From Candidatus Hodarchaeum mangrovi (GTDB lineage: Archaea; Asgardarchaeota; Heimdallarchaeia; Hodarchaeales; Hodarchaeaceae): DNA of 30,833 bases. The notes under the pieces were generated by a model. The model searched no databases. It had not been told where the DNA came from and was given only the letters and a program-made list of their open reading frames with translations. The DNA lies in NCBI GenBank assembly GCA_016839515.1, contig JAEOUE010000168.1:1-30833 (forward strand). The letters run 5' to 3'. Shown one piece after another: positions 4,074-26,085 of this stretch. Within the stretch, counting starts at the first letter, position 1. Every line of letters begins with the position of its first letter. A program made the translations under genes and the position numbers.

Positions 4074-5966
4074 TTAAAACGGTAGTGCTATCGTATTCAG
4101 TATTAATGATAAGAATGTCGCTAATGAGATTGTTATTCCTAATCCTGCTCCTAATCCAGCAAGGATTACTGCACGATCAGATTCCCAATCACTCATTCTG
4201 GTTTTAAGAACACGAGCAAATAACGCTCCGAGAAAAGTTAATATAGGATAGGGGATAGCAGTTGTGGTCCCAACAACCAATGAAATTACAGAGATTGGTA
4301 TTGCGGTTCCCCATTCGAATCCATACAAAATCAATACAATAATAAAAGTAATTCCAACTATAAGTGGATTGAATACAACCTGAGGATTGGTTACTAACGT
4401 AACGACTTTCCCTACATCTAAGTTCCAGAAGGGAACTGGATAAATCACAGAAGGTACTTCAGAGATAGATAACAGTGCTGTAACCCAAAAAATTCCAGCC
4501 CCCCACGCTATAAAGGACGCAATAAAATGAGCCTTAATTAAACTCATCCTTTTGGTTTTTGTTAAATCAGCTACTTTAAAAGTTGCAACCCAGCCAGCTC
4601 CTCCTTGAGTAATGACTAGGGGAGCAAACCATATCTCGCCTCCTAAAGGAGCATCTGCTGCTATAAATAATGATTCCTTAAAATAGGGTATTCCAGGTAA
4701 ATTTGCTGTAATTCCAAATGCATAAGCTAGTGCCAATGTTGACAAAAAAGACCAGCCAACAGTTAAGATTATGATTAATAATATCAATCGCATTGGAAGA
4801 TCAGGAATTAAAAATACGACAAGAAAACTTGAACCTAATGTTCCAAGCAAAAAAAATCCAATTAAAACGCTTAAACGAGGCATTTCACCTTCAATATCCT
4901 CCCCTTTTCCTTTGCTTAGCTTTCTTAAATCCCTGATAGTTTTACCAAAAATTCGTGGATCTTTTAAAATTGGAATTAAAGAAGCAGAGATTACTAATCC
5001 CACAGTCCAAGGTAAATAAAATTCTAATTGGGTATAATTATACGTATCCAATAAAGACATCCCGGGTGACCACCGGGGTAACAATCCATTCGCTACCAGA
5101 ATTGGATTCATAATAAGATTTACAAAGATTGATCCTAATAATATGCATACTACAACATTAAATGGAAGAATGAATCCAGTAGCAAATGCCAATATATCGG
5201 TAGCAATACCTAGAGATGCTCCTGGTAAAAATGCTTCAATTGATTCATTAAAATCAAACCATGGTATCGGAATAAAGGTTAATTTTAGAACTAATGGGAA
5301 TGCATAAATTACTACCCCGATAATACTGGCAATTATGGCACTCATTGAAAAAATTTGGAGATGCCGTTGATTTTCCCAGGTAAGTGATTTGGCTGCAGCT
5401 GCATCTACATAAGCAGTAGGAAAAGGGAGTACCTCTACTTTTGTATAAAGATAATTAAATATGAGCCCAAGAGATAAATCAGCAGCTTTAGAAAGTAAAG
5501 AAGTAATGATTAATAACCCTATTGGAATGAAAAAAACGGGGTTGAATAATGACCTTAGTGGGCCAAAATATTCAGGTGCAAACCAATCAGGGATTAATTC
5601 TGTAAGAGAGATTCCATTAATAAGAGCAGATCCAGTTATATCATGATGTCGAAGGTAATAATTAAAGACGACTGCCACAATCATCTCCATTCCAAGAGCA
5701 GTACTTGTTACATTCATCATAATAAATACTTCTTGTTTAGAAAGGGGATTATCGGCCATTTTTGCTAGAACAGCGAATAATACAATTGTAGTATTGAGAA
5801 CAGCCCCAATAAACCAATTATTAGTAACAAAATAAAGATATATAGCTGCTGGTTGCAAAATAAACGCTGAATAAATTATTGCGAGCCATATTCGCCATGT
5901 AAATCCACTTTGATATAGGCTGTCATCTGAAGAATTTGTTATGACATCTGCTTCAATATTCGTCAT
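4074..5966 (-). CDS. OPT (oligopeptide transporter)-like polytopic membrane protein
   Basis: 630 aa, hydrophobic throughout with many predicted TM helices; SGFTWR at the N-terminus, LSKQE, EVLPFP motif typical of OPT-like proteins; AGGAG RBS; 18 nt downstream of the preceding gene. Confidence 0.75.
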   Translation of the reverse strand: MTNIEADVITNSSDDSLYQSGFTWRIWLAIIYSAFILQPAAIYLYFVTNNWFIGAVLNTTIVLFAVLAKMADNPLSKQEVFIMMNVTSTALGMEMIVAVVFNYYLRHHDITGSALINGISLTELIPDWFAPEYFGPLRSLFNPVFFIPIGLLIITSLLSKAADLSLGLIFNYLYTKVEVLPFPTAYVDAAAAKSLTWENQRHLQIFSMSAIIASIIGVVIYAFPLVLKLTFIPIPWFDFNESIEAFLPGASLGIATDILAFATGFILPFNVVVCILLGSIFVNLIMNPILVANGLLPRWSPGMSLLDTYNYTQLEFYLPWTVGLVISASLIPILKDPRIFGKTIRDLRKLSKGKGEDIEGEMPRLSVLIGFFLLGTLGSSFLVVFLIPDLPMRLILLIIILTVGWSFLSTLALAYAFGITANLPGIPYFKESLFIAADAPLGGEIWFAPLVITQGGAGWVATFKVADLTKTKRMSLIKAHFIASFIAWGAGIFWVTALLSISEVPSVIYPVPFWNLDVGKVVTLVTNPQVVFNPLIVGITFIIVLILYGFEWGTAIPISVISLVVGTTTAIPYPILTFLGALFARVLKTRMSDWESDRAVILAGLGAGLGITISLATFLSLILNTIALPF

Positions 5967-5984
5967 TCATAAAACTCCTAAAAT

Positions 5985-8900
5985 CTACTTCAAATGTTTT
6001 CTGAACTGTTCCGCTTTTACCACTTTTTCTTCCTGTGGTAAGCTTCTCCATATTAATAATTGTTTACGAATAGAATCGACAAACCTCCTAACTGAGGATT
6101 CCCAGGCAGAAAGTATTCCTTCTAAACGAACCAGATTTATTTCAAAGGTATAATGATATTTGATTTCATCGAGATATGTAATTAATTCAACAGTTTGTTT
6201 CATGCCCATATCAAAAGGTGCCAGATTTACTGTTGCAGTCAGAGATTTCTTTCGTCCTCCTTCTGATTCAGAAGTATTAATTTTTTGAGCAAAAAATACT
6301 CCTCCAACGCTTTCTGATTCATAAATCAAGAAAAATTCCCGTAAGAATTCTATTATCCCTTCAGCTTCTTGTTCCGTTGCAGCTACAAATGGTAATGAGA
6401 TAGTCCATTTACCTGATTCCTCATCAGGTCTTGTTGATAATTCCCACGCTCTTTTAACCGATGGAACAGACATTTTCGCGGAAATTCGTAGAGGATATAC
6501 CGTACTTAACAAAATTCCAATAATACCAAAACCTAAAGCATTTATAACAGATCCTGACGAATAATTAATTGCTAAAGATTCAGGAAATAGTCCTATTATA
6601 GATAAAACGACTGCTGAAGTAATACCGATCAAATACCCAACTACAGCACCTATCACTGCATATACTAAAAATTCAGCCAAGAATAAACCAGCTATATGAA
6701 AGGGAGCTAGACCTAAAGATGTAAAAATAGAAATTTCTTTTTTAGATTCATAAACTGTAGATATTGAAGTGTTGACCATCAGTAAAATTGCAATGGTTAA
6801 TGGAATAGCTAATTCAACGAATCCCCGACCTAAATCTTGGGTCACACGTCTATGTATACTTACAATTCCATTATTTCCAACACGAATTTCTAAATATCTA
6901 GCATAGGTTGCAGAAATAGTTTCAGCTATTTTAACTGCATTTGTATAGTCACTAAGTACAGATATTGAATATAAAGAAGCTCCAAGGTCTTTTGCTGTAT
7001 CAGCAGAGACAATAACAATTTGATTTCCACTTATATGAACATTTGGGCTTGACGCATGTGTATTACGGGGAGTTATAGATTCACTATCAAATTCTTTTAA
7101 TTCTACAAACCGATCACCATCAATTAATCCTACTACAGTATATTGAGCTCCTGACCATAAAATGGTGTCATTTACATTAATATTTAAAATATCTGCTGCA
7201 GAATTAGGTAGAAGACATTCGGAATTATTATTTCCAGAAAGCCATCTACCTGTAACCAAAAAGTTCTCCACAGGTTGAAAATCTACTTCTAACTCCGACA
7301 AGCCAAGAAGGGCCCACGCCACCCAATATGCACTTAAATCCATTGTTGAAATATTAACATATCCAATAGTAGTCTGAGCAGGTGGATATAACCACCAGTG
7401 GGTAGTAAAATTGCCTATATTGCTATAATCAATTTTTAAATTTTCAAGAAGTTCTTGTGATAATGGTGTTTTCCAATCTTTACTTCTAATATAAACACCA
7501 GTATAAGGTGTTGGAGCTTCAAGGCCTTTTGAATAAACAGAAATTTGAGTGCTAGCAGAAGTAAACAAGGTTAAAGAAAAAGTAATTAGAATAATCCCTG
7601 AAAGTGCAATAATTGTTCTTCCCTTCCTCTTTTTCATCCGTGAAATTCCAGTACTCATTGCTATAAGAATTGTAGAAGTTCTTGAGGTATCCACAAAATG
7701 AGAACCTACAATCTTGACACGTAAACTCTTCAAAAAGTTAAATCCTTCTTGATAGATCATATAAAGCGCGGGAAAAATAAATATAATAGCAACAACACCT
7801 AAGATTATCATTAGAATATTTTTTGAAAGATGTAATCCTGGATGAATTATATAGAAAAAACCTAATGTAATTGAAAATATCGCACCTGTTGATATTATAC
7901 GTTTTACTCCTGTATCAAAGTTAAAAAGCAAAGAAGTCAACGCAAATGAAAAAGGAATTAATAATACAGCAAAAAAGATAGTTGTAGAAGTACCATCTTC
8001 AATAACATTACGAGCTTGTTTAAAAGCATCATAGGATAATGTGTGGAGCTGTTTAATATTAACTAAAGCATGTGAGTAATTATATTGGTTTATTAATTCC
8101 TCTACCTGCGAATAAAGTGTTTTCGCGTTATAGAGAGTCGTATTTACAAGAGCATCATCTATATTATATCTAGTATAAAGATCAACATATGTTTTTGTTA
8201 TTGAGAGTAAATCTTTGGAAGAGATCCAAGCTGATAATCCAAGATTTAGAGTTATTCCTTTTGCAACCTTATATCCACTACCACGTAAAAATTCATCACT
8301 TGAATTAGTGATGTAAACGCCAAGGATTTTATCAGGCAGCTCACCTACTAATATTACTGGGCTATCAGGTTCTAAAAACACTAAGCTTACAGTACCAACT
8401 CCAATATATCCATATGAAAAATACAAACTTCTAGTTTCAGGATCTAAAGCTCTATAGCGTAATGAACCTGCTGAAGGAACCTGTGTATAAGGATGGGTAA
8501 TTCCACCTAAGGTAAGAGTTCCACACTCAAAAATAATTGGATTTATTGTGATTCTACTATTTGTTAATTTTCCTGTATTTTTAAATTGCTTTCCATGTTG
8601 ACCCAAGTTATTTGCTTTAATTAATTGACCAGAATCATCAAAACAATATGCTTCTACAATGAAATCAAGAGGGTAATCAGGTTGGGAAGATGCAACTCCT
8701 CGAATTTGGTAATAACCATTATAATCAGCTTGTGTATAAAAACAAAATTCTTCAGGTACCCCTTTTCGAAGTTCCATATAAGTGACTCTAATAAGTGCGT
8801 TTGGAACATTCTCTAACCAAGCAGTTGTTTCATTATACTCTTTAACATTCCCATGGATAGAAGCAAAACCTACGTGAAATTGATGTTTCAAGCTGAAAGT

Positions 8901-10403
8901 TTTATGCTGAAGATCTAGGTAATTTCCCAAATTTGGTTCTGTTATAAGCTGTGAGAGAGCACATAAAGAATAAACTACTTGTGGTTTAAGATTTGACCAA
9001 TTAAGATTATCAACAATATCAAAAGGAGTACTAAATTTAAATCGATAGGATTCAGATGTAAATATTGATAATCCGATCACATTACTGGCAACAAATGGTT
9101 CTTGATCTCCAACAAATGTTATAGGGGCAATGTCTTCAAATTTTGCCAAATTAATATATGACTTAATATCAAATATTACATCTGTTTCAGATCGTATTTG
9201 AGACGCATATTTTTGAAGAAAACCTTCACCAATATCTTTCATTCGATTCTGTAAATTATTTCCTGAAGTAAATTGTAATTTAAAACGATAAAGATATCCA
9301 TATGGATTTATACCCAATTTTGTGCTTGTACTAGATAGATCTAAACATAAGACTAGTTTTATGCCTGAATTTTTGTTTAAAATATCATAATTTTCAAATA
9401 CAAACTCCCTAGAACCTGCTGCAGATTGATGGTGTCCAGAAAAAGCGATAAACATTATTGTTTTTTTAGGTGTAATGTTATTATCCCTGATTAAATGGAT
9501 AAGTTCAAGGAGAGTAGCTATTCCACACGCATCATCAGCACCGGGTGCAATTGAGTTCACAATAGAATTTGAATCAAAATAAGCGGAGATTATTACTTTA
9601 TCCTCATCTTCACCTGGAAGAATTCCTATTACATTCTTTGCATCTATTGTCTTCCATTCCATTCCAGAATAGATTTTTACAATATGACCCCCTTCTTTAC
9701 CAAGTGATCTAATATTTGAAGCAGTGGTCTGATTTGAGATAAAAATTCTTGGAATATATAGTGGTACATCCAAATCTTTTTCTTTAGCCTCAAAACGATC
9801 GGTATTATTAGGTGTAAGAAAAATAATACCTTTTGCACCAAGACTTACCGCATTTACCCAGTTTGATTTTGAATTGAATTCAAGAATTACAATTGAATCC
9901 TTAACTTCTAAACCGTTGAACTCTGTAAATGAACCATAACCTGCATATACTAAAGATCCAATTAATCCTCCTAGAGGAGTTTTACATGCATGTACTGAAT
10001 TTGGATTTAACATTTGAGCAGAATAATTCTGTCCTCCATATTCAATGTAAGTACCATAATCAATAGGAACAGTCAAGGGATAGGTAAAATATTCAACATT
10101 AGACAGATTATTTCGGTTAAAAAAATTAGTAATATATGTCAGGGACTGCTCATAACCTGGATAACCAGTCATTCGGCTCCCAAAACTCGAAAAATTTGCT
10201 ATATGGCTTTGTATACTAGGAAAATAAGAAGAGTTTATCTGACTTGCAAGTAACTCAAAATCTAAGTATTCATTAACTACTTTTGGAAGATCCACTGAAA
10301 ATTCATTGTTAAAATCAATTGTACTTGTAGATGGATTACTTAAAATTAAAGTCAATAGAAAAAAAAAAAGAGGAAGGAGTAAATGAACTTTTAGAATCTT
10401 CAT
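5985..10403 (-). CDS. Giant FtsX/MacB-type ABC permease with N-terminal PA + M28 peptidase-like (degenerate) ectodomain
   Basis: 1472 aa. Signal peptide; SRMTGYPG; PA-like GSLVYAGYGSFTEFNGLEVKDSIVIL; M28-like IISAYFDS...APGADDACGIATLLEL; TM cluster; KRKGRTIIAL (FtsX TM1); second extracellular domain; VYESKKEISIFTSLGLAPFHIAGLFLAE (FtsX signature region); soluble C-terminal domain. Confidence 0.85.
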   Translation of the reverse strand: MKILKVHLLLPLFFFLLTLILSNPSTSTIDFNNEFSVDLPKVVNEYLDFELLASQINSSYFPSIQSHIANFSSFGSRMTGYPGYEQSLTYITNFFNRNNLSNVEYFTYPLTVPIDYGTYIEYGGQNYSAQMLNPNSVHACKTPLGGLIGSLVYAGYGSFTEFNGLEVKDSIVILEFNSKSNWVNAVSLGAKGIIFLTPNNTDRFEAKEKDLDVPLYIPRIFISNQTTASNIRSLGKEGGHIVKIYSGMEWKTIDAKNVIGILPGEDEDKVIISAYFDSNSIVNSIAPGADDACGIATLLELIHLIRDNNITPKKTIMFIAFSGHHQSAAGSREFVFENYDILNKNSGIKLVLCLDLSSTSTKLGINPYGYLYRFKLQFTSGNNLQNRMKDIGEGFLQKYASQIRSETDVIFDIKSYINLAKFEDIAPITFVGDQEPFVASNVIGLSIFTSESYRFKFSTPFDIVDNLNWSNLKPQVVYSLCALSQLITEPNLGNYLDLQHKTFSLKHQFHVGFASIHGNVKEYNETTAWLENVPNALIRVTYMELRKGVPEEFCFYTQADYNGYYQIRGVASSQPDYPLDFIVEAYCFDDSGQLIKANNLGQHGKQFKNTGKLTNSRITINPIIFECGTLTLGGITHPYTQVPSAGSLRYRALDPETRSLYFSYGYIGVGTVSLVFLEPDSPVILVGELPDKILGVYITNSSDEFLRGSGYKVAKGITLNLGLSAWISSKDLLSITKTYVDLYTRYNIDDALVNTTLYNAKTLYSQVEELINQYNYSHALVNIKQLHTLSYDAFKQARNVIEDGTSTTIFFAVLLIPFSFALTSLLFNFDTGVKRIISTGAIFSITLGFFYIIHPGLHLSKNILMIILGVVAIIFIFPALYMIYQEGFNFLKSLRVKIVGSHFVDTSRTSTILIAMSTGISRMKKRKGRTIIALSGIILITFSLTLFTSASTQISVYSKGLEAPTPYTGVYIRSKDWKTPLSQELLENLKIDYSNIGNFTTHWWLYPPAQTTIGYVNISTMDLSAYWVAWALLGLSELEVDFQPVENFLVTGRWLSGNNNSECLLPNSAADILNINVNDTILWSGAQYTVVGLIDGDRFVELKEFDSESITPRNTHASSPNVHISGNQIVIVSADTAKDLGASLYSISVLSDYTNAVKIAETISATYARYLEIRVGNNGIVSIHRRVTQDLGRGFVELAIPLTIAILLMVNTSISTVYESKKEISIFTSLGLAPFHIAGLFLAEFLVYAVIGAVVGYLIGITSAVVLSIIGLFPESLAINYSSGSVINALGFGIIGILLSTVYPLRISAKMSVPSVKRAWELSTRPDEESGKWTISLPFVAATEQEAEGIIEFLREFFLIYESESVGGVFFAQKINTSESEGGRKKSLTATVNLAPFDMGMKQTVELITYLDEIKYHYTFEINLVRLEGILSAWESSVRRFVDSIRKQLLIWRSLPQEEKVVKAEQFRKHLK

Positions 10404-10415
10404 TATTCAACCCAT

Positions 10416-12563
10416 TTATTCTGTTTTTCTAACAATACCTCTAACTACTAAGAAGAGAACTGCGACTATGGATATTAACCAAATTCCAGCTACTATCCAA
10501 TAATATACATCTTCAACAAAACCAGTAAAAAACAGGAATGGTAAGATAGAAGGAATAATTGTAGCAAGTAATGTATAACCCCATAATCCAGCGGTCCCAA
10601 TTAAATAGCCTACAGCTGCAGGAAGAAGATAATTGGTGTAAGCTCGGGTTCCTCCAATACGTACAATTAAAAATTTAATTAGATAAGCAATTAAAATAGA
10701 CAACCACCAATAACCACCTCTTAAACTTAGTAGTATTGGAGCAGCAACAGGATTTAATGGCAACCAAGGTCTACTTAGACGGAGAATATTCAAACCAATT
10801 GCAAACACAGCCCCAAGTATAGCTTGACCCCAAATTTCGATTCCATAACTTCTATGATCCCAAAAACCTCCTGCTGCTAATTCAAGAGAAGATTCACTAT
10901 AATCAAACATATGACCTGCTTCACCTGACCATTCGTTACTTAGACCATAGAAATAAGCTAATACTGGCCATATTATTAAACAGAGTAAAATAATCGAAAT
11001 TACACTAACACTTTGACCTATAAACAGATCTCGAGCTCTAGTTTTTGTTGTTCTTGCGATATTATAACCTTCCAACGCTGAAATAGCAGGAGGTGCAGGT
11101 GCAGCATCACGTTGGAAAAATTGGAGCCACATGGCTGTAACATAATAACCTGGGGTAGCAGCATTGTTCTCACCAATAATTACACGTGCACTATGCATTC
11201 CATGCAGATGTAAATATCCAGGATGACCAATACCCATTCCTGCAGTTTCTGCGCGTAACCGAGCTCCTGCAAGATATCCAATAAGAAGAAATACCACTGC
11301 ATAAACTGCTCCAATTAGTGGGGAACCACTTAATACGAGGCTGCTTAGAAAAATTAATCCGCAAACCATTAAACCAATCCAAGCTGTCCGATAAGAAATT
11401 GGTTCTCCACTTTCATCGATAATACTTGGATCCCAGATAGCTTTTATTGTCCTTATAATGTATCTTCGTTGCAAGATAAATGCCCAGATGGCTACGCCAA
11501 ATAGCATTCCAAATTCACCAAATGCAAATAAAGAAATTCCCCCAACTCGACCAAATCCAGAATCTATGTCTGGAGGAGAAGCTAAGACGGTTGGAGGGTC
11601 AACTATTCCAAATTCTGTCTGAAAAACAGGTATAAGTACCCAAAACAACAAATAGAAGACAAGACCAGAAAGCAAAACATTTAATGATACCAAAAGAAAA
11701 GCAGCGATCATAACTGGTTCTGGTCTGGCTTCTAAATATGCATTTGGAAGTAAAGCACTTAATCCAAATTCCTTTCCAAAATCAATCGTTATTGCCCAAG
11801 CCTTTCCAGGAATAATACCAAATGGAAAGTCGGGAAGAAGTTCTATTTGATAGACAACTCGTAAAAATTCTAAGCTAGACCATCCGATAGCAATTAATGC
11901 ACCTAACGACATGAAAAAGTACCTTGTTCTTTTTTCTGCAGGTTTGGCAAGTGGTGCTTCTATTAACTCTTGAACTGGTTGAGCAAGAGGAAAAGCTAGA
12001 CGTTCGACATCAACCCAAGGCTTTCTAAAAATTTGAATCAAAAAAAGACACATAAATGCCCATGCAATGCATGTAATAGCCCAAAATGCTATAGGAATTA
12101 ACCATTCAGCGATATTCGGAAAAGCACCTCCAGCGTATGCACGATTTATCTCATCTAAAGAAGGAGCCCAGAACGTTGGAGCCCAACCAGTGGGAGGCGA
12201 AAGAGGCTCATCGAGGTGGGTAAACATTGCATTAAGTAGTAGACGCCCAGCAATAAATCCAGAATTAGTAATAGGAATTCCAACAATTAACATTGCCCAT
12301 ATAAAGGTTAATTCTTGGCGAGAATACTGCTTTCCTTTTATTCTGATTTTTTCTAAAAGCTGCAGACCAAAAATAAGTAAAAAGAATGGAAAAAGTATGC
12401 TCATTTCCTCAATGAATATTTGGGGAGCACCACCAAAATTTCCAGAAAAGATAGTAAGAACACCCCAAACTAAAAGAATTGAAAAACCAGTAATAAAAGA
12501 TTTTTTGGTTAAACCATTTTGAAATTTCTCTATTTCATCAAATTGCTCATTCTCTTCGCTCAT
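10416..12563 (-). CDS. Polytopic membrane protein, DUF6785/DUF6784-like (OPT-related)
   Basis: 715 aa with many TM helices; SRQEL, RKPWVDVERLAFPLAQ, ARLRAETAG and WLPLNPV...KFLIVRIGG motifs recalled from DUF6785/DUF6784 proteins; 12 nt upstream of the 1472-aa gene. Confidence 0.75.
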   Translation of the reverse strand: MSEENEQFDEIEKFQNGLTKKSFITGFSILLVWGVLTIFSGNFGGAPQIFIEEMSILFPFFLLIFGLQLLEKIRIKGKQYSRQELTFIWAMLIVGIPITNSGFIAGRLLLNAMFTHLDEPLSPPTGWAPTFWAPSLDEINRAYAGGAFPNIAEWLIPIAFWAITCIAWAFMCLFLIQIFRKPWVDVERLAFPLAQPVQELIEAPLAKPAEKRTRYFFMSLGALIAIGWSSLEFLRVVYQIELLPDFPFGIIPGKAWAITIDFGKEFGLSALLPNAYLEARPEPVMIAAFLLVSLNVLLSGLVFYLLFWVLIPVFQTEFGIVDPPTVLASPPDIDSGFGRVGGISLFAFGEFGMLFGVAIWAFILQRRYIIRTIKAIWDPSIIDESGEPISYRTAWIGLMVCGLIFLSSLVLSGSPLIGAVYAVVFLLIGYLAGARLRAETAGMGIGHPGYLHLHGMHSARVIIGENNAATPGYYVTAMWLQFFQRDAAPAPPAISALEGYNIARTTKTRARDLFIGQSVSVISIILLCLIIWPVLAYFYGLSNEWSGEAGHMFDYSESSLELAAGGFWDHRSYGIEIWGQAILGAVFAIGLNILRLSRPWLPLNPVAAPILLSLRGGYWWLSILIAYLIKFLIVRIGGTRAYTNYLLPAAVGYLIGTAGLWGYTLLATIIPSILPFLFFTGFVEDVYYWIVAGIWLISIVAVLFLVVRGIVRKTE

Positions 12564-12726
12564 TCAAATCCCATCTGATTTTTTTATTATTATTTATAAT
12601 GTTAGTTAACCTAATGTGTCGCAATTATTAATTTATTAAATTTTTTGGAAATTTATCAATATAAAATCTTTTGATGTCTTTTCAATGAATCAGATAATCT
12701 CACAGTTTATTATGGGTGAAAAAGAA

Positions 12727-17233: not shown

Positions 17234-17245
17234 ATTCTGGTTAAT

Positions 17246-18244: not shown

Positions 18245-18247
18245 TTT

Positions 18248-18970
18248 TTATCCAATCGAACTAACTTGAACATCAGCTCTATCTTCAATTCTATCAACGT
18301 ATCCGTCCCTGATCCAGATAATGCGATCACTAATTGAAATCATTTTCAAATCATGGGTTGCTGTAATAATTGTAGTCCCCCTTTCATTGTTTAACTTCCT
18401 TAGTAGTTCAATTATTTCAAGTCCAGTTGCTAAATCAAGGTTTGCAGTTGGTTCATCTGCAAGTACAATGGCAGGATCATTAGCTAATGCCCGAGCAATT
18501 GCAACACGCTGTTGTTGACCACCACTTAACTGACCAGGTTTGTTCTTCATACGATCTCCAAGCCCTACTGTCATTAATAGTTCTTTTGATCGCTTTCTTC
18601 TTTCCTCTCGTGGAATCCCAGCAAAAATCATCGGTGTTTCAATATTTTCTTGCGCTGTGAATGCTAATAAAAGATTGAATGTCTGAAAAATATAGCCAAT
18701 CTTTCGATTACGTAACCATGCCAATTCGTATGCATCAAGTTCTGCTATATCGACCTGATCAATGAAAATTTGTCCTGAATCAACTATATCAAGACCCCCT
18801 ATGGCATTGAATAACGTACTCTTACCTGACCCTGATGGCCCCATAATAGAAATGTATTCTTCTCTTTTAATCTTGAATGAAATTCCTTGAAGTGCATGGA
18901 CTTCTACTTTACCAAGGTAATAAGTTTTATATACATCGGAGATTTCAACAACGTTTTCAGTTAAACTCAT
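18248..18970 (-). CDS. ABC transporter ATP-binding protein, MacB/LolD family
   Basis: [50 protein letters not shown]; GAGGAG RBS. Confidence 0.95.
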   Translation of the reverse strand: MSLTENVVEISDVYKTYYLGKVEVHALQGISFKIKREEYISIMGPSGSGKSTLFNAIGGLDIVDSGQIFIDQVDIAELDAYELAWLRNRKIGYIFQTFNLLLAFTAQENIETPMIFAGIPREERRKRSKELLMTVGLGDRMKNKPGQLSGGQQQRVAIARALANDPAIVLADEPTANLDLATGLEIIELLRKLNNERGTTIITATHDLKMISISDRIIWIRDGYVDRIEDRADVQVSSIG

Positions 18971-18984
18971 GGTTGACTCCTCTA

Positions 18985-19587
18985 TTAATTTTCATAACGT
19001 AAAGCTTCCGCTGGGGATAGACTTGCTGCACGACGAGCAGGAACATAAGTAGCTAAGGCAGAAAGTATCATTGAAACTAGGACTGAAGTTACTAATAGAA
19101 TTAAAAAGAAAAAGATATTATCTTGTATAAAGAGACTGATTTCGTTAAAAGAAAAACGATTAAGATTAATTATAACCCCAAAAAGCATTCCAATAAAACC
19201 TCCAAGACTTCCTCCTAAAATACCAAGAAGAAGTGCTTCAATAATAAATAACCGGACAATATGGTTGTCCAACCCACCTATACATTTGTAAACTCCTATC
19301 TCTTTAACTCGTTCATTTACAGCCATCAACATACTATTTGTGATTCCACCAAAGCAAACGACTAATGAAATTCCTACTAGCCAGAATTGATAAGCTTCAA
19401 TCCCTGTTTCAGCTTGCAATTCCCTTAATATAAAGTAACTAGTTAATAAAGCGACCATAAATGCTATTCCTAGTATTATACCCAGTGCTGTGATAACTGA
19501 TCGAAAAAATCTTCTTCTTATATTTGAAACAGATAAAAATAACATTTCCCCAATGGTAAAATTAGGTTCTGGAAGATCTAAACTCAA
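18985..19587 (-). CDS. Minimal FtsX-like ABC permease (4 TM, no ectodomain)
   Basis: RRRFFRSVITALGIILGIAF; ITNSMLMAVNERVKEIGVYKCIG; PARRAASLSPAEALRYE C-terminus. The TTG start overlaps the upstream TGA stop (TTGA); GGAGG RBS. Confidence 0.9.
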   Translation of the reverse strand: MSLDLPEPNFTIGEMLFLSVSNIRRRFFRSVITALGIILGIAFMVALLTSYFILRELQAETGIEAYQFWLVGISLVVCFGGITNSMLMAVNERVKEIGVYKCIGGLDNHIVRLFIIEALLLGILGGSLGGFIGMLFGVIINLNRFSFNEISLFIQDNIFFFLILLVTSVLVSMILSALATYVPARRAASLSPAEALRYEN

Positions 19588-19955
19588 TATTCGCCCTCCA
19601 TTTTTTTACTCAATAGACCTTTCTTTATTTTTTTCCATGTTACATTTTTTTCAGTGATGTCAACCAAATGTTGTCTTAGGATTTTTACTGTTTCACCTTC
19701 ATTTATTCGCGTGCTATTCCAAGTAACGTAAGGAGCGTAAAAACGTCCTCGTTCAAATTTGATTTGATCATTTTCAAAACTAAACTTTAAAAACCCTAAT
19801 TCTCTTAGATAGCAGTATTCATTTGGACAAAGAATATCAATCTCCCCCATATCTTTTTTGAGATAGAGCAAAAGGTAATCTGTATAATCTTTGATTATTT
19901 GTCCACATGGACACTGTATTTGGTTTGTTTTATCCTCTAAGGCCAAACTATACAC
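19584..19955 (-). CDS. Small hypothetical protein with CxC...CxxxxC (putative Zn-binding)
   Basis: 123 aa; IQCPCGQ and ILCPNEYC; first gene of the ABC operon with a 4-nt overlap into the permease. Probable start is TTG 19946 behind an AGGTG RBS. Confidence 0.75.
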   Translation of the reverse strand: MYSLALEDKTNQIQCPCGQIIKDYTDYLLLYLKKDMGEIDILCPNEYCYLRELGFLKFSFENDQIKFERGRFYAPYVTWNSTRINEGETVKILRQHLVDITEKNVTWKKIKKGLLSKKMEGEY

Positions 19956-20173
19956 CTTTAAATATTAAAATAAACTTATTTCTTAAAGAGAAATTGATCT
20001 TAAATTTTGTTAAGCACTCTTTTAATAAATTATGTCATAAAAGTTGTGTACAAAATTCTTGAAAATAAATGACTATATAAATTTAGATCTAATATCAAAC
20101 TTGCAAGCCTTCTTTTGTGTATATTCTGCTAAATATCATGAAATAATTTACCTTATTTTCAAAAAGAATGCCT

Positions 20174-22042
20174 TTACTTCTTCGGTCTTAGCTCTAGGAA
20201 AAGAACCATACCTAGTGCGATCACAGATACTCCAACAAAAAGAATTATGATAATTTCATCATTTCGTGGACTGGGAATAGAAGTTGTTGTAGGTTCTGTA
20301 GTAGTAGTAGTATCTTGTAATTCATATGGTTCCATTGTAATTTTTGCAGTCCCAAGAGCTGGTAATGTTATATTGAAGGTATCATCCATTAAAAAATTTC
20401 CCAAAAGATTTGAGCCATTGTAATATAAAGAATAAGAAGCTGGATAGTTTTTAATTCTAAATGTTAATGTTTTTTGCTGATTATATGGATTGAAGACGAT
20501 ATAATATCGATTTGTGGAGTTTATTGGATAATTACGCTCTAAAACGTTTAAATTAAGAATCATGGCATTTTGGTCCAAGGATTCTCCCAATGCTTCAAAC
20601 AATAAATACAACCAAAGTGTCTCCCCAGCACCGTAAATTTCTTTACCGTTATAACCAGCCTTTAGTGGATCAGGATCGTAAGTCCCTCTTGATTGATAAT
20701 AACTTATATCCTCATATGGAATATATTGAGCAGTAATTGGACCATAAAATCGTTCATACACATCTGGGACACAAGGACTAAAGAAATAAAAGTGCTTAAT
20801 TCGATTTAAATTCATAATTTTCAATGGTTCTATGACTTTAAATGTAGGTGAATCATAAAGATGTTTAATATAATCTACCCAAAATAGGATTGTCTCAATA
20901 TTTTCCTTAGCTGCAGGAGCATCAATACCACCTAAACCTAGTTCTTTAGGATTTGCATAAGGGGAATGCATACCATCTTGCCAATTTGTTGGTAACCAAG
21001 GACAATCTTGAGGATTAAATCCGAAATTCCAATCTATTTTTCCATTATCATAATATAAGATTTCTGTCCCAGCATAAAATAATTCAGTAGCTAATTGTTG
21101 AAAGTTTGTTGTTGAATTTATTAAATCTGCGTATTGAATCAATCTAGCAGCTGCAGCAACCCCAGCTGACACTTCTTGTGGTTCATACATTAGGTTAAAT
21201 GGAGGAGTTACAGATCTCATTGCTAATAATGATTTTTCCGCTTCCTCTAAATAAGTAAAATTTCCAGTCATTTCATAAGCGTCAATTAAGCTATAAGCCA
21301 TTAGACCAACGGTACAATAATTTATATTACCATTTTCTATTGCCTGTTTTGTTTCAACAATGACAAATTGAGGAAATAAATAGTTAAAATTGGAAGCCAT
21401 TTCAAGAGCACTGTTTAATGACCCATAATAAGGCTCAACAAGGACAGATTCATTAGAAATATAAAGTAAATGTCCCCATTTCAGTACACTATTTTCCATA
21501 AAATACCAACTATCATGCGTTGTTTCCCCTGGTCCATTTGTAGCTTGTTTATATACAGGAGAATAATAGAGTGGTAAACTTTGAATAAATTCATCCAATT
21601 CATCAGATCGTGTTGAATTAGGATGTAATTCTAAATACCTATAGAGAGGCCAAATCACATCCATAGTAGCTATTAATTCCGTACTATCACGAGTCCAGTC
21701 TGAACCTCCCCAACCATCTGCACCTTTTACATAAGGGCGAAAACTTCTCCGATTCCCTCCTATATCCAACCAACTAACATCATATGTCAAGAGTTCTTCA
21801 ATACTTTTCTCTGAGAAATCAGTCCAAGTTGTTGCATTCTCTGGAAATTCAGCATAAGCTGGGAGAGTGGAGATAGCAGACTTACGAGTATCAAAGAGAC
21901 TTTCCCAAGTAAAATCAACATTATGAATGATATTATTTTCTGTATTAGTTGAAATGATAACTGTAGAAGCAATGGTTAATGCGTGAGTAATAAGCAAGAG
22001 AAATGCAATTTTTAATATTTTATAAGACCCTATTCTTGACAT
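20174..22042 (-). CDS. Putative (alpha/alpha)6 glycan-active enzyme of unassigned family, paralogue 3 (signal peptide, Thr-rich linker, C-terminal TM anchor)
   Basis: 622 aa; signal peptide; HDSWYFMEN, YEPQE, PAAKENIET, YIPYED, GKEIYGAGE; QDTTTTTEPTTTS linker, then hydrophobic helix and RPKK; GAGGA RBS. Confidence 0.7.
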   Translation of the reverse strand: MSRIGSYKILKIAFLLLITHALTIASTVIISTNTENNIIHNVDFTWESLFDTRKSAISTLPAYAEFPENATTWTDFSEKSIEELLTYDVSWLDIGGNRRSFRPYVKGADGWGGSDWTRDSTELIATMDVIWPLYRYLELHPNSTRSDELDEFIQSLPLYYSPVYKQATNGPGETTHDSWYFMENSVLKWGHLLYISNESVLVEPYYGSLNSALEMASNFNYLFPQFVIVETKQAIENGNINYCTVGLMAYSLIDAYEMTGNFTYLEEAEKSLLAMRSVTPPFNLMYEPQEVSAGVAAAARLIQYADLINSTTNFQQLATELFYAGTEILYYDNGKIDWNFGFNPQDCPWLPTNWQDGMHSPYANPKELGLGGIDAPAAKENIETILFWVDYIKHLYDSPTFKVIEPLKIMNLNRIKHFYFFSPCVPDVYERFYGPITAQYIPYEDISYYQSRGTYDPDPLKAGYNGKEIYGAGETLWLYLLFEALGESLDQNAMILNLNVLERNYPINSTNRYYIVFNPYNQQKTLTFRIKNYPASYSLYYNGSNLLGNFLMDDTFNITLPALGTAKITMEPYELQDTTTTTEPTTTSIPSPRNDEIIIILFVGVSVIALGMVLFLELRPKK

Positions 22043-22126
22043 CTAATTAATTCCTCATTTAATGACGGATAATTTTATGATTAATGTTTTTTATGATATA
22101 ATACCTAGATAAAAAGGAGAACAGCC

Positions 22127-23497
22127 TTAAAATTTAAATTGAGGTAATTCAGCTTTAAAAGCTTCTATATAAGCATTTGATAAGATTTCGGCTAATTCAA
22201 GATCACGAACCATTGGATCTAAAGCAAATGCTTGTGTTATAAGATCAATATCTCCTTTTATAGATCCCTGCGTTATTAATTTCGCAATAGATATTTCTTG
22301 ATTACAAATTGCTGCAATTGATTCTGGTAGAGAACCAATTTTTACTCCAGAAGCACCATATCTGTTTAAAAGACAAGGAACTTCCACTATTGCATCAGAA
22401 GGTAGATTTGTTATACATCCATTATTTTCAATATTTAAAGCAGGTTCATAGACATTTGTATTTGTTTCTATTGAATCTATGATTGTTGCAATTCTTTCAG
22501 CGACATCAGAATGTAAGTGACTAAGTGGAAGTTTATAATCGATCATATCCTGAATTTTTTTCATGTTTTTTATTTTATTTTCTTTATTTTCTTGAAAATT
22601 GAAAGGATAAAGATTAAATTTATCCCAATTCTCTTTTCTACTTGTATACGGTAAATACTCTGATATATGAGTTTCACCACCGACAGGTAGTTTCTTAAAG
22701 GTTTTTAGCATTCGTATTGTCAATGCTTCAAATTTTTTAGGTACTTGATCTAGATTCGCCCAGATTAGAGGGTAAATATCCTCATTTGTACCTTTTCTTC
22801 TGATATCGAGCATCCATGAGAAATGATTCAATCCAGCTGCTAATACTTCATATTCATTGAGTGAAGCATTTCGAATTTCCTGATATTCTGAAAGTTTATT
22901 ATTTCTTATCCTTTTTTGTAGGTCAGGAAGCATAATCCGGCCCAATATATAATGACCATGCCAAAATTGATGACAAAAACTAATACATTTCAGATTCGTG
23001 AGTTCATTTATAGCATAATGGATTCTAGGAAGTGGGTTGGTAAAATTTATTATCCAACTATCTGAAGCTAAATCTTGAATGTCATTAAAAACAGGTATTA
23101 GAACAGCAATGTTTCTAGCTGTGTGACCAAATGATCCAGGTCCTCCATTCTCAGCATAATGATAAATATCGAATTTTTTTCCTAGTTCGTAATCCTGACT
23201 CCAAGTATCGTCCCGATTAACCCCAATGATCAAAATAATATAATCCGCATCATGTAAAACCTCGCATCTATCAGTTGTCGACACGAGTTCCATTTTTGAC
23301 CCAAACTCATTTTTTATACGCTTAGCAAGCGAATAAACCATTTTAAGCTTATTTTCATCGATATCTACCATACAAAGGGTTCCATTGTCAAAATTCTTAT
23401 TTTTTAAGATGTCACCTAAAGTAACAAGATTAAACCCTGCGCTCCCTGCTCCAAGTGTAACAATTTTTGGATCATCTGACATAATTAAACCACTCAA
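22127..23497 (-). CDS. Glycoside hydrolase family 4 (NAD+/Mn2+-dependent), alpha-galactosidase-like
   Basis: KIVTLGAGS (NAD-binding), AENGGPGS, INFTNP, FCH, GLNHF, HISEY, NxGxIxNLPxDAIVEVP, AFALDPMV. Likely start is ATG 23482 (MSDDPK). Confidence 0.9.
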   Translation of the reverse strand: MSGLIMSDDPKIVTLGAGSAGFNLVTLGDILKNKNFDNGTLCMVDIDENKLKMVYSLAKRIKNEFGSKMELVSTTDRCEVLHDADYIILIIGVNRDDTWSQDYELGKKFDIYHYAENGGPGSFGHTARNIAVLIPVFNDIQDLASDSWIINFTNPLPRIHYAINELTNLKCISFCHQFWHGHYILGRIMLPDLQKRIRNNKLSEYQEIRNASLNEYEVLAAGLNHFSWMLDIRRKGTNEDIYPLIWANLDQVPKKFEALTIRMLKTFKKLPVGGETHISEYLPYTSRKENWDKFNLYPFNFQENKENKIKNMKKIQDMIDYKLPLSHLHSDVAERIATIIDSIETNTNVYEPALNIENNGCITNLPSDAIVEVPCLLNRYGASGVKIGSLPESIAAICNQEISIAKLITQGSIKGDIDLITQAFALDPMVRDLELAEILSNAYIEAFKAELPQFKF

Positions 23498-23521
23498 TAA
23501 TTCTAAGATGTTATTTTAAGC

Positions 23522-24568
23522 TTAATACTTAACAATCGTTTTTATATCATTAGAAGAACCTGCTTTCATCAAAGAAAACATATTTTTTAACTCATCTAAG
23601 GTATATTGCTTCGTTATTAAAGAGTTTATGTCAATCACATTTTTCTGAAGAATATCCATTGCATTCTGGTTTTCATAGGGATTAGTGAAACTACCAAAAA
23701 TGTGTAATTCGTTTTCATATACCTTAAAAATATCTAATGGAATCTCAGTACTAGGATTTGCAACTCCAAAGAGTAATGCTTGACCCCCGCGATTTAAAAT
23801 TTTGATTGACCCTATCGAAGTTTGTGCGCTTCCAACAGCTTCAACTGACAAATCTACTCCATTATTAGCAGTTTGTTTGGAAATAAAATCAATCATTGAA
23901 AATTCCATTGGATTAACAACTTGATCAGCTCCAAACTTTATTGCAAGCTCTCTTCGTAATTCTATTGGTTCAAAAACAAAAAGCTCAGACTTGAAAAGAT
24001 ATTTTATCAGTGAAATCATCATCAATCCAATTGGACCTGCACCAATAACAGCTGCAGTCTCGACAATGGAATTTTTCAGATTATTTAATCCATGAAGACA
24101 ACACGCAATAGGTTCCATGAAAAGTGCTTCTTTTAACGTGACTTTTGAAGGAATTTTAATAGCTGCACTTGCAGGACTTTTGATTAATTCTGCAAATCCT
24201 CCAGGTTCTGTTACTCCTAATGCTTTCCAGTTTAAACAAAAATGAGGACGCTTTTTCTTGCAATAATAACAATATTGAGAAGGTTTGATATTATAATTAA
24301 GGCAAGAAAGATTTGGATTAAGCGCTACACGATCTCCTACAAGATAATTTTTTACTTCTGAACCGATTTGGATAATTTTTCCTGAAAGCTCATGGCCTGG
24401 AACAAGAGGGTATTTTACAAATGGAACTTGTCCCTCATAGATATGTAAATCAGTCCCACATACTCCACAATAGGCAACTTCAACTAAAATTTCGTTATTA
24501 TTAATAGAAGGGTTCTGAATTTCTTCTAATTCAATTTTAAAGGGCTTTTCAAAGATTAAAGCTTTCAT
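23522..24568 (-). CDS. Zn-dependent medium-chain dehydrogenase (sugar/polyol dehydrogenase-like)
   Basis: CGVCGTD, GHE, structural-Zn Cys cluster, EPIACC, GAGPIG Rossmann motif; AGGTA RBS. Confidence 0.92.
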   Translation of the reverse strand: MKALIFEKPFKIELEEIQNPSINNNEILVEVAYCGVCGTDLHIYEGQVPFVKYPLVPGHELSGKIIQIGSEVKNYLVGDRVALNPNLSCLNYNIKPSQYCYYCKKKRPHFCLNWKALGVTEPGGFAELIKSPASAAIKIPSKVTLKEALFMEPIACCLHGLNNLKNSIVETAAVIGAGPIGLMMISLIKYLFKSELFVFEPIELRRELAIKFGADQVVNPMEFSMIDFISKQTANNGVDLSVEAVGSAQTSIGSIKILNRGGQALLFGVANPSTEIPLDIFKVYENELHIFGSFTNPYENQNAMDILQKNVIDINSLITKQYTLDELKNMFSLMKAGSSNDIKTIVKY

Positions 24569-24644
24569 CTAGAAAGATTACCTACCTTAAAGGAATTTTT
24601 AAAGGATTAAATTTAAATTCTTCTAAGGTATCTGGTGGACTTAT

Positions 24645-25577
24645 ATGAATTTTAAAGCAGTAGGTTGGGAACATATTCTTATCAATGTTCCAGAAAATTG
24701 GGAATTGGTGTTTCAAAAGGATCAAAAGAAATCAAAAAAACATGAAACAGGTTATTTTGGTTTTCGTGACTCATATCAAAAAAGACTAGAAATATCCTTT
24801 TCTAAGATTGATAAAAAACCACCAAAAGTCAGTTCAGTCCTTGCAGATTATTATAAATCACTCAAAAAAAGTAATCGGAAAATCACAATTAAAAAAGAAG
24901 CTTCAATGAAAGTCAATGAACATAATACAGAATATATTTACTGGGAATTAAAAAAAGAACAAATATTAGGGTATATTTTTTCTTGGATTTGTCCTGAATC
25001 AAATCGAATTTTAATTTGTACAACCCAATTTTCTATTGATGAAAAACCAGAAATGAAACAACAATTAATAGAATTAATTTCAAAACTAAAATGTCATTTT
25101 GATACTGACTTTATAATATGGTCAGCACCCAACCTTCAAATTTCAACACCTGTATATGAAATGTACCTACAAAAAAAGGTATTTCTTATAGGATTAACTT
25201 TTCTAGAATTTAAAGGAAAAAATTTATCTCTTTTGACATACAGAATTGGTTTAGCTAATCAAAAAATAAAAGATGAGAGTAATCTGCCAGAATGGTTTAA
25301 GGATAATTATAAGAAGGACCTTCCTAAAATCCCGCGTAATTTTCAGGTTGGGGAATTTTCTAAGTTGCATTATAAGAAAAAAGAGAATATTTGGAAGAGT
25401 TCGTATCATGTAGAATCGAAAATTCCGAAGAGAGGAATGTACTTTGAAATATATCTATGGCATAATTATGATAAAAACGACATTTATTGTCTAATTTTTA
25501 TATCTAAAACTCCTCCTTCATCTAAAAAAAGGGAAACTATAGAAAATATTACTAAATTAGCTATCATGGTTAATTAG
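24645..25577 (+). CDS. Hypothetical protein, possibly tandem PsbP/Mog1-like domains
   Basis: 310 aa, basic and soluble; GWEHILINVPENWEL N-terminus and WICPESNRILI; GGTGG RBS. Fold assignment is inference. Confidence 0.65.
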   Translation: MNFKAVGWEHILINVPENWELVFQKDQKKSKKHETGYFGFRDSYQKRLEISFSKIDKKPPKVSSVLADYYKSLKKSNRKITIKKEASMKVNEHNTEYIYWELKKEQILGYIFSWICPESNRILICTTQFSIDEKPEMKQQLIELISKLKCHFDTDFIIWSAPNLQISTPVYEMYLQKKVFLIGLTFLEFKGKNLSLLTYRIGLANQKIKDESNLPEWFKDNYKKDLPKIPRNFQVGEFSKLHYKKKENIWKSSYHVESKIPKRGMYFEIYLWHNYDKNDIYCLIFISKTPPSSKKRETIENITKLAIMVN

Positions 25578-25635
25578 TTTCTATTTTTTAGTAAATTAAA
25601 CTCGGAATCAAGAAAGGAGTTTGAATTATCTAGCT

Positions 25636-26085
25636 TCAGAAATCTAGAATAACTTTTTCAATAGAGACTCCTGATAATTTTCTTTGTCCAGCAATCTCTT
25701 CAGGAACAAGAAATCCGATTAAATGTCTCTCAGTTAAATTCATCAAAAATTTTTGGACAGATAACTCGGTTTCAGTCTGTGTTAGTTTATATTTCTCTTG
25801 AAAAATCTGAATGATATCCTTAACACGGTTCTTACCATCACATAACAAAAAAACATCCATTCCTAATTTATCAAGCTGGATCCTTTTGTAATCAGGTGTG
25901 GGTATATATCTTCGTATTTTACTTCTTTTTTTCAACTCTGAAATGTTGAGCTTCAGAAGTAATGAATCCTCTGTTCTTTTCTTCTGTTCTACAAAAGGGC
26001 TAATAACTGGTTTTAAACGATAAAATTCATTTTTGTCTACTACTAGTTGATTTGAGGCTTTCTTTCTTTTTCTTAAAAAAGACAA
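25636..26085 (-). CDS. PqqD family / RiPP recognition element (RRE)-like protein
   Basis: LDKLGMDVFLLCDGKNRVKDIIQIFQEKYKL...SVQKFLMNLTERHLI matches the PqqD winged-helix pattern; TTG start with AGGA upstream. Confidence 0.8.
   Translation of the reverse strand: MSFLRKRKKASNQLVVDKNEFYRLKPVISPFVEQKKRTEDSLLLKLNISELKKRSKIRRYIPTPDYKRIQLDKLGMDVFLLCDGKNRVKDIIQIFQEKYKLTQTETELSVQKFLMNLTERHLIGFLVPEEIAGQRKLSGVSIEKVILDF

Follow-up and report, generated by a model that had tools for sequence, protein, structure and literature searches.

A giant FtsX-type protein between two OPT-like carriers in a Hodarchaeal glycan locus: a candidate receptor-assisted importer

Candidatus Hodarchaeum mangrovi carries on contig JAEOUE010000168.1 (assembly GCA_016839515.1) a gene for a 1472-amino-acid (aa) FtsX-type protein, here called the giant, between two genes for membrane proteins that resemble OPT-family carriers. 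The prevailing view gives type VII ATP-binding cassette (ABC) proteins a mechanical task on the outer side of the membrane and has OPT carriers act without partners, and the locus raises the question whether the two form one uptake system here. We analysed positions 1 to 30,833 of the contig, and this whole stretch of 30,833 nucleotides (nt) is called the window. A preliminary description, made from the sequence letters, had proposed a single uptake machine of two unequal FtsX permeases, two ATPases, two OPT-like proteins and a Cys4 protein, with a PqqD protein and a hypothetical protein nearby. Our own answer is tentative: the locus possibly encodes a receptor-assisted importer of the OPT type which is assisted by ATP in archaea, and the conserved unit is the trio of carrier, giant and carrier, not a set of seven or nine genes.

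The genes in question form two minus-strand operons, which proved to be as tightly coupled as first described, with all open reading frames (ORFs) present and spaced accordingly. In operon A, which is the trio, the genes for the 715-aa, 1472-aa and 630-aa proteins follow each other with gaps of 12 and 18 nt. Operon B consists of the genes for a 123-aa protein, after a 4-nt overlap a 200-aa FtsX protein (the mini-FtsX), after a 14-nt gap a 240-aa protein and after a 3-nt gap a 247-aa protein. The named ORFs are real genes and not chance ORFs, because each of them has many homologues. The window has a G+C content of 29-38% and its proteins are 65-83% identical to NCBI proteins from metagenome-assembled genomes (MAGs) of Hodarchaeota, Hodarchaeales, Heimdallarchaeota and 'Promethearchaeota'. 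The features of both operons are as follows (TM, transmembrane segment; AF2, AlphaFold2):

10416..12563, minus strand: 715-aa membrane protein with DUF6785 and DUF6784, upstream flank of the trio (Pfam, AF2, Foldseek)
5985..10403, minus strand: 1472-aa giant (Pfam, hydropathy, alignments, AF2 and Foldseek, PADLOC)
8985..9635, minus strand: M28-like domain of the giant, aa 257-473, catalytically degenerate (Pfam, alignment to 1amp/2anp, column census)
7740..7994, minus strand: three-TM cluster of the giant, aa 804-888, family-specific (hydropathy, invariant columns, hhalign)
6468..7622, minus strand: FtsX/MacB-type module of the giant, aa 928-1312 (Pfam FtsX, Foldseek)
5988..6461, minus strand: predicted cytoplasmic C-terminal domain of the giant, aa 1315-1472 (AF2 model, profile search)
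4074..5966, minus strand: 630-aa carrier, a divergent member of the OPT superfamily at the downstream end of the trio (Pfam OPT below cut-off, hhalign)
19584..19955, minus strand: 123-aa cytoplasmic Cys4 protein (four invariant Cys)
18985..19587, minus strand: 200-aa mini-FtsX permease with four TMs and no ectodomain (Pfam FtsX, hydropathy, homologues)
18248..18970, minus strand: 240-aa LolD/MacB-type ABC ATPase (Pfam ABC_tran, NCBIfam, motifs)
17501..18244, minus strand: 247-aa LolD/MacB-type ABC ATPase (Pfam ABC_tran, NCBIfam, motifs)

The 715-aa protein matches the Pfam families DUF6785 (1.6e-35) and DUF6784 (2.8e-11) and has no OPT match. The 630-aa protein matches the Pfam OPT model almost from end to end (model positions 2-620 of 623, E 3.9e-5), with 22.9 bits below the cut-off of 25.8, and one Bathyarchaeial DUF6785 protein gives an OPT match with E 5.7e-4. 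Alignment of the DUF6785-family profile with the profile of the 630-aa family by hhalign had a probability of 98.6% (E 7.4e-16, 559 columns), and the genes flanking the giant are therefore paralogues. For the AF2 model of the 715-aa protein (predicted local distance difference test, pLDDT, 84.2; predicted TM-score, pTM, 0.89) Foldseek found two PDB matches at E<=0.001, both of them barley YS1 (7wst_A and 7wsr_A). The match to 7wst_A has E 3.8e-11 and TM-scores of 0.61/0.70 over 689 columns with 17-18% identity. By this model the 715-aa protein has the YS1-type OPT/YSL fold of core and scaffold domains, and the 630-aa carrier would share it through its homology to the DUF6785 family. PDB sequence searches with both carrier profiles gave nothing significant. 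According to PMC9691689, YS1 is an OPT-family symporter that is driven by protons, works by an elevator mechanism and forms homodimers through its scaffold domains.

The giant starts with a signal or anchor TM, followed by a PA and M28 ectodomain, a beta-rich region, three extra TMs, an FtsX module (TM1, a putative MacB-like periplasmic core domain and TM2-4) and the C-terminal domain. Eight membrane segments are seen in the hydropathy profile, one N-terminal, three at 809-881, FtsX TM1 at 930-948 and three at 1196-1307, and therefore about 780 residues precede the membrane core on the outside of the cell and about 160 follow it in the cytoplasm. Peptidase_M28 (56.5 bits, cut-off 21.3) and FtsX (39.1 bits, 8.7e-10, cut-off 25.5) are both above their Pfam cut-offs and MacB_PCD, with 17.5 bits, is below its cut-off of 27. 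In the AF2 model of residues 790-1472 (pLDDT 68.9 overall) the periplasmic and C-terminal domains are confident and the TMs poor. Foldseek ranked MacB (5lil_A, E 3.6e-13) first for this model and also returned LolCDE, HrtBA, YbbAP and BceAB; the periplasmic part matched the periplasmic domain of MacB (3ftj) with a TM-score (TMt) of 0.62.

Comparing the M28 domain with the Vibrio aminopeptidase 1amp, and with its E151H variant 2anp, showed Tyr in the giant at the position of His97 and His-His at Glu151-Glu152, residues which we take to be catalytic or zinc ligands in 1amp. A column census of 12 giants from archaea and bacteria found Glu at the Glu151/Glu152 equivalents in none of the 12; at the His97 equivalent 8 of them have Tyr, 3 have His and 1 has Phe. 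Because the Glu pair is never Glu, with His kept at the His97 position in 3 of 12, the M28 head of the giant is a pseudo-peptidase by canonical criteria, as had been proposed beforehand. The Nicastrin large-lobe model of Pfam also matches the giant below cut-off (aa 270-337, E 0.0015), as it does library protein P0178, which probably reflects the shared M28 fold.

The three extra TMs contain an invariant His854-Pro855 and have no similarity to TM2-4 of the FtsX module (hhalign probability 0.2%), and for this reason the idea of the giant as a self-sufficient double FtsX was dropped. It follows that the giant contains a single FtsX unit and depends on a further one, supplied by its own copy or by another protein. 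In the stretch between TM2 and TM3, presumably the site at which the ATPase docks in MacB, the residues E1219, E1223, I1224, G1231, L1232 and P1234 are invariant in all 12 giants, archaeal and bacterial.

How often the three genes occur together was determined in the best 80 of 518 relatives found by a DUF6785 alignment scan with one genome per species. The loci were censused with the window proteins and with profiles built in this analysis, and start codons were assigned mechanically. Of the 80 loci 15 contain the giant, and in every one of these (15/15) two or more OPT-superfamily genes share its strand. Seven of these loci belong to the Heimdall group (L001-L007) and two to Bathyarchaeia (L008-L009), four carry Latescibacterota or Gemmatimonadota labels (L021, L022, L024 and L025), and Planctomycetes (L043) and Latescibacterota (L061) have one each. 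Eleven loci combine DUF6785 with the 630-aa type and the other 4 have two copies of DUF6785, with a total of three carriers in L043; in 13 of the 15 the spacing between the giant and the carrier downstream of it ranges from -59 to 31 nt. Since L021, L022, L024 and L025 are near-identical and the Heimdall-group loci form one lineage, the 15 trio loci amount to about six independent lineages. The near-identical loci (end branches 0.001-0.03) are labelled Latescibacterota, Gemmatimonadota and 'uncultured bacterium', and at least one of these MAG labels is doubtful.

Among the 80 loci, the 630-aa carrier type is found only with a giant, and its 12 tree rows, the window included, all fall into one clade with support 100. 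A label test on the tree needed 4 changes against a shuffled mean of 28.7, and 0 of 500 shuffles were as low; near-identical rows and shared ancestry inflate this result, and it was therefore not used as proof of co-evolution. Two adjacent DUF6785 paralogues also occur in at least 13 of the 65 giant-free loci (L011, L012, L019, L026, L027, L030, L033, L038, L042, L044, L047, which has three, L057 and L063), which suggests that the DUF6785 family commonly acts as hetero-oligomers. With at least two carrier genes in all 15 giant loci and such pairs in the others, the paired genes fit dimeric elevator carriers as described for YS1 (PMC9691689).

One protein joins giant and carrier in a single chain. 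P0382 (2120 aa; fusion noted at residues 1299-2110) is an in-frame fusion in which a giant is followed, after an acidic linker of about 27 residues, by a complete DUF6785+DUF6784 carrier, an order that agrees with that of the genes. The giant part is 41% identical to the giant of L061, and the carrier part has its nearest relatives (43%) in a DUF6785 clade which stands alone in the contigs examined. P0382, if genuine, supports a Rosetta-stone link of giant and carrier. Together with the synteny and the restricted carrier type, this single fusion makes a physical link between the giant and the carriers plausible and supports this part of the single machine proposed earlier; the obligatory set of seven or nine genes has given way to the trio. 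Folding the TM pieces of the giant (800-955 and 1190-1320, as two chains) with the 630-aa carrier gave a score of 0.02 with a mark of 0.32, was run without controls and weighs neither way.

The C-terminal domain of the giant, modelled with a pLDDT of about 80-89, is the signature that marks the giant family. Its profile found 1582 cluster representatives at E<=0.001, and 1393 at E<=1e-10, among 1.84 billion, and in 266 of 268 C-terminal-domain proteins examined it forms the extreme C-terminus. A PDB sequence search with this profile gave no significant match. Giants of Poribacteria have the architecture M28+LysM+FtsX with 2400-2560 aa. Across the wider family the heads are interchangeable, with M28+LysM in Poribacteria, WD40 propellers in Planctomycetota, Big_5 and Baseplate_J, and lengths up to 3053 aa (P0225, P0205, P0249 and P0252 are library examples). 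In P0347 the C-terminal domain is followed by a tail (residues 1589-1791) with CxxC...CxxC and then four hydrophobic segments; this was considered as a fused Cys4 protein and mini-FtsX and rejected, as it has no similarity to either profile. Hodarchaeales possess a further set of giants which are shorter (1228-1270 aa, M28+FtsX; among P0153-P0170) as well as a second mini-FtsX group with 45-53% identity (among P0098-P0106), which would fit one mini-FtsX per giant.

Operon B may provide the second FtsX unit. The mini-FtsX matches Pfam FtsX above cut-off (61 bits, 1.4e-16) and has four TMs with about 20 aa between TM1 and TM2 in the hydropathy profile, so there is no periplasmic core domain. Its homologues have about 200 aa and the named ones are solely from the Heimdall group and Bathyarchaeota, the latter with 45-47% identity. 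Both ATPases match Pfam ABC_tran (240-aa protein 121 bits, 7.2e-35; 247-aa protein 117.9 bits), and their best NCBIfam matches are LolD and MacB, below the equivalog cut-offs (LolD with 223.5 bits for the 240-aa protein). They are 54% identical to each other and both keep Walker A, the signature LSGGQ, the Walker B-Glu and the H-loop. The Cys4 protein, for which no Pfam or NCBIfam family was matched, has C15, C17, C43 and C48 invariant in 7 of 7 aligned sequences, and its look-alikes in the Atlas are hypothetical proteins of Bathyarchaeota (0.95 and 0.94, a lead only). The components are of the kinds named in the preliminary description.

Two intact ATPases are encoded about 5 kb from the trio in the window, and that they are unlike each other and accompany a single mini-FtsX suggests a second, different membrane partner. 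Operon B adjoins the trio in 7 of 7 Heimdall-group loci, with only the divergent 801-aa gene between them. The named relatives of the mini-FtsX and the Cys4 look-alikes in Bathyarchaeota give operon B an archaeal distribution that matches that of the trio. The longest contigs of giant, mini-FtsX and DUF6785 clusters are of equal size for 9 values, 5 of them contigs of 16.6-26.5 kb, and the contigs of equal size are probably one and the same. A diverged giant (P0181) and a diverged mini-FtsX (P0105) likewise have longest contigs of equal size, 238137.

Taking these lines together, the trio would be the uptake system of a glycan-degradation locus, with transport directed inward. The two OPT/YSL-fold paralogues would provide the route through the membrane; most likely they would pair as proton-coupled elevator carriers in a heterodimer comparable to the YS1 homodimer. 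The giant would sit beside the carriers, in physical contact with them, with its dead PA/M28 head and its MacB-like periplasmic domain as a tethered receptor which captures oligomers freed at the cell surface and passes them on to both carriers. The FtsX unit of the giant might pair with the mini-FtsX and the two unlike LolD-type ATPases in the Heimdall group and probably also in Bathyarchaeia. Such an asymmetric type VII ABC engine, to which the Cys4 protein may be an accessory, would move the head between capture and release by ATP hydrolysis (mechanotransmission). The substrates would be acidic or otherwise decorated oligosaccharides or fragments of glycoconjugates. ATP coupling is plausible for the archaea only, and the full hybrid importer, in which an asymmetric ATP-driven type VII ABC mechanotransducer with a dead-peptidase head loads or gates an OPT/YSL heterodimer, we regard as doubtful.

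The expectation of glycan substrates comes from the surroundings of the trio. Besides the two operons, the window encodes a GH4 glycosidase, a Zn-dependent dehydrogenase, a GH2 protein, a DUF4861 fragment and an MgtA-type ATPase (Pfam, NCBIfam), and the genes mapped around the operons are:

12727..14613, minus strand: 628-aa N-terminally anchored protein of an unnamed family (hydropathy, weak fold leads)
20174..22042, minus strand: paralogue of the 628-aa protein, 622 aa (sequence comparison)
14828..17233, plus strand: paralogue of the 628-aa protein, 801 aa (sequence comparison)
22127..23497, minus strand: GH4 glycosidase (Pfam, NCBIfam)
23522..24568, minus strand: Zn-dependent dehydrogenase (Pfam, NCBIfam)
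24645..25577, plus strand: 310-aa protein, neighbour only (homology in Heimdall-group loci)
25636..26085, minus strand: 149-aa PqqD-domain protein, neighbour only (Pfam PqqD)
985..3234, minus strand: 749-aa protein with signal and C-terminal anchor, no family (conserved in Heimdall-group loci)
3379..4059, plus strand: 226-aa protein, no family (conserved in Heimdall-group loci)
28688..30832, plus strand: MgtA-type P-type ATPase, truncated by the end of the window (TIGR01524 above cut-off, 675.7 bits)

The 628-aa protein is anchored at its N-terminus, its 622-aa paralogue has a signal and a C-terminal anchor and the 801-aa paralogue is cytoplasmic; the paralogues are 49% and 26% identical to the 628-aa protein. 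Weak leads for this family all point to (alpha/alpha)6-type folds (a GH88-named Atlas cluster with 0.91, LanC-like with E 0.013, C5-epim_C with 0.014 and GH127 with 0.15), and the three paralogues are possibly a new family of glycan-active enzymes. Other trio loci hold GH20, GFO/IDH/MocA, epimerase, amidohydrolase and 2-hydroxyacid dehydrogenase genes. No solute-binding protein or type I/II ABC permease was found by Pfam among the 19 window ORFs of at least 90 aa, in agreement with the preliminary description, and the setting is one of glycan catabolism. By its gene content the locus would break down a decorated glycan at the surface, take up the products and process them in the cytoplasm, and in the window operon A is the sole candidate for the importer. 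In the Heimdall-group loci the 749-aa protein lies beside the trio in 6 of 7, and full-length matches to the 226-aa protein are found in 6 of 7. The MgtA-type ATPase appears unrelated to the trio. Three ORFs of 127-151 aa (12067-12522 and 13554-13952 on the plus strand, 30448-30831 on the minus strand) run antisense within long genes for which homologues exist, and these ORFs are probably not genes; tRNAs and Rfam families were not detected in the window.

Several observations weigh against the receptor-assisted importer. OPT/YSL carriers are self-sufficient proton symporters which do not require ATP (PMC9691689), and the energising or gating of the carriers by an ABC part, as put forward in the preliminary description, is a conjecture. 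No ABC ATPase, mini-FtsX or Cys4 gene was detected in the examined flanks of the 8 non-Heimdall trio loci, of which L021, L022 and L025 had the full 10 kb on both sides. The occurrence of similar gene sets in other genomes, stated in the preliminary description, is true of the trio, in archaea and bacteria; operon B adjoins the trio, within the flanks examined, in the Heimdall group only. Inside that group, the linkage sits in about 20 kb of synteny which also keeps unrelated genes, and it discriminates poorly for that reason. The four near-identical Latescibacterota/Gemmatimonadota loci count as one observation. Carrier and giant lack the strict co-occurrence that the preliminary description had looked for: 65 of the 80 DUF6785 loci are without a giant (several contigs are too short to exclude one), which means that the DUF6785 carrier works without it, and Poribacteria giants are not within 10 kb of the DUF6785 genes of the same organisms. 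P0382 is one of the 268 C-terminal-domain proteins examined, comes from an unannotated library and is maybe an artefact of assembly or gene calling. The evidence on the substrate is indirect, and the dead peptidase head could equally bind peptides.

That the genes do not form one machine is a view which we consider unlikely. The carriers would then be autonomous secondary importers and the giant, joined by the mini-FtsX and the ATPases where these are present, a mechanotransducer similar to MacB, FtsEX or YbbAP with a task at the surface, such as holding or switching anchored hydrolase-like proteins or extracting an amphiphilic membrane substrate; the adjacency would reflect no more than a shared pathway and regulation. 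Most DUF6785 genes stand alone, and among 84 proteins encoded next to them in 16 loci are sulfatases, xylose-isomerase-like barrels, short-chain and GFO/IDH/MocA dehydrogenases, a lactonase, enolase-superfamily enzymes, PhyH dioxygenases, acetyl-xylan esterases, GH30 and an alpha-galactosidase. These loci are catabolic and lack an FtsX partner, which shows the carrier family at work unaided. The partners of known type VII systems are extracytoplasmic and are not carriers, as in FtsEX-EnvC, LolCDE-LolA, MacAB-TolC and YbbAP-TesA (bioRxiv 10.1101/2025.05.16.654284). The varied ectodomains of the giants (M28, LysM, Big_5, WD40 and Baseplate_J) are as expected for binding of surface polymers, and the window encodes three membrane-anchored enzyme-like proteins which could be acted upon. 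Against this view stand the very tight gaps and the gene order, fixed across about six lineages, the restriction of the 630-aa carrier type to giant loci and the in-frame fusion in P0382.

It is more unlikely still that the trio is an uptake complex without a motor, with the giant as an ATP-independent receptor, scaffold or regulator of the carriers and operon B as a separate small type VII ABC system that happens to lie close by in the Heimdall group. The missing ATPases in the flanks of the 8 non-Heimdall loci are what this would predict, the mini-FtsX could homodimerise, and P0382 joins the giant to a carrier and not to an ATPase. Orphan FtsX-family permeases are, moreover, a known category: the NCBIfam model ADOP, whose name we take to stand for 'orphan' permeases of this family without a neighbouring ATPase, matched the mini-FtsX weakly. 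However, if the giant had no ATPase partner, one could hardly explain why its docking stretch between TM2 and TM3 is invariant in 12 of 12 giants. A mini-FtsX homodimer served by two different ATPases would be unusual, and the named mini-FtsX relatives share the archaeal distribution of the trio.

Two annotations hint at functions other than uptake. PADLOC assigns residues 754-1455 of the giant to PDLC01991 'CARF_m8 CARF_LolE_TM' (E 3.7e-63), the sole library model that catches the membrane core and the C-terminal domain as one family; the label, shared with PDLC01990, is presumably drawn from the CARF census of Makarova et al. 2020, and its meaning is taken from the PADLOC label alone. In the window the match spans profile positions 25-682 of 810. 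The best-scoring stretch ends at 598-688 of 810 in 8 of 8 giants tested, at about 682-688 in 5 of them, and the last approximately 125 positions are uncovered in all 8; the sensor part of the PDLC01991 family seems to be absent from the giants. In the literature searched we found no paper that combines CARF and LolE. The 149-aa protein has a PqqD domain according to Pfam (31.8 bits, cut-off 23.4), with all NCBIfam PqqD-type models below their cut-offs. At E<=1e-5 it is present in 5 of 7 Heimdall-group loci, the 310-aa protein in 7 of 7 and both in 0 of 8 other trio loci. For this reason the two proteins, initially listed with the machine, are not counted as parts of the module and are regarded as Heimdall-group synteny only. 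No radical-SAM or other peptide-maturation enzyme was seen among the 19 window ORFs (short precursor ORFs were not searched for), and no CRISPR or other defence gene was found in the window by Pfam, NCBIfam and PADLOC. Signalling, defence or the export of, or immunity to, a ribosomal peptide by the ABC part is accordingly very improbable, even with the PADLOC match, the PqqD domain and 'antimicrobial peptide transport system permease' among the JGI names of relatives in its favour, given the uncovered end of the profile, which would be the sensor, a window in which no defence gene, maturation enzyme or precursor-like ORF was seen, PqqD missing from 8 of 8 non-Heimdall trio loci and a context that is catabolic throughout.

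If giant and carriers do work together, the FtsX-carrier pairing would be a new partner class for FtsX-type proteins and would suggest that the capture of a substrate can be coupled to secondary transport in a novel manner. The hybrid importer, if true, would add a third receptor-dependent uptake design to those of ABC importers and TRAP systems; it would occur in the Asgard lineage that is closest to eukaryotes and also, without an adjacent motor, in several bacterial phyla. The C-terminal domain of the giant and DUF6785/DUF6784 occur commonly among uncultured heterotrophs, for example Poribacteria, Latescibacterota, Bathyarchaeia and the Heimdall group, and a function for both families would fill a gap, namely how polymer products are taken up without a classical sugar importer in the locus. 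No paper on the giant family, on DUF6785/DUF6784 or on this module was found in the literature searched.

Among known systems, PDLC01991/PDLC01990 correspond to the giant in membrane core and C-terminal domain, with the end of the profile unmatched and no defence context here. The transferrin receptor and nicastrin are M28 pseudo-peptidases with receptor roles, and the giant likewise has a PA and M28 ectodomain on a membrane anchor with the catalytic residues lost; the Nicastrin match is accounted for by the shared M28 fold. With the type VII ABC systems (MacB, LolCDE, FtsEX, HrtBA, BceAB and YbbAP) the giant shares the FtsX four-helix module with an ectodomain between TM1 and TM2. LolD/MacB-type ATPases are likewise encoded near it, and some known systems also use partners, such as the membrane kinase in BceAB-S. 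In contrast to these systems the giant has in addition a PA/M28 pseudo-peptidase head of about 780 aa, three more TMs and a cytoplasmic C-terminal domain particular to its family. Its presumed other half, the FtsX protein of 200 aa, lacks an ectodomain, and there are two different ATPases in the window and none adjacent in the bacterial trio loci. The conserved neighbours of the giant are OPT-superfamily carriers, a type of partner not found for type VII systems in the literature searched.

With regard to the OPT/YSL family (TC 2.A.67; YS1 structures 7wst and 7wsr), the 715-aa protein has the same fold in its model, the 630-aa protein has a weak full-length Pfam OPT match, and the dimeric elevator logic of YS1 fits the paired carrier genes. 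However, two unlike paralogues are found here instead of a homodimer, the 630-aa protein stays below the Pfam OPT cut-off, and the 715-aa protein is assigned by Pfam to DUF6785/DUF6784 and has 17-18% identity to YS1. The context points to glycan products rather than to peptides or metal chelates, and the carriers are linked to a giant FtsX protein. In TRAP/TTT transporters an extracytoplasmic receptor feeds an elevator-type secondary carrier. The logic proposed for the trio would be alike without homology between the two, and the receptor would here be membrane-integral, fused to an ABC-type module and possibly driven by ATP.

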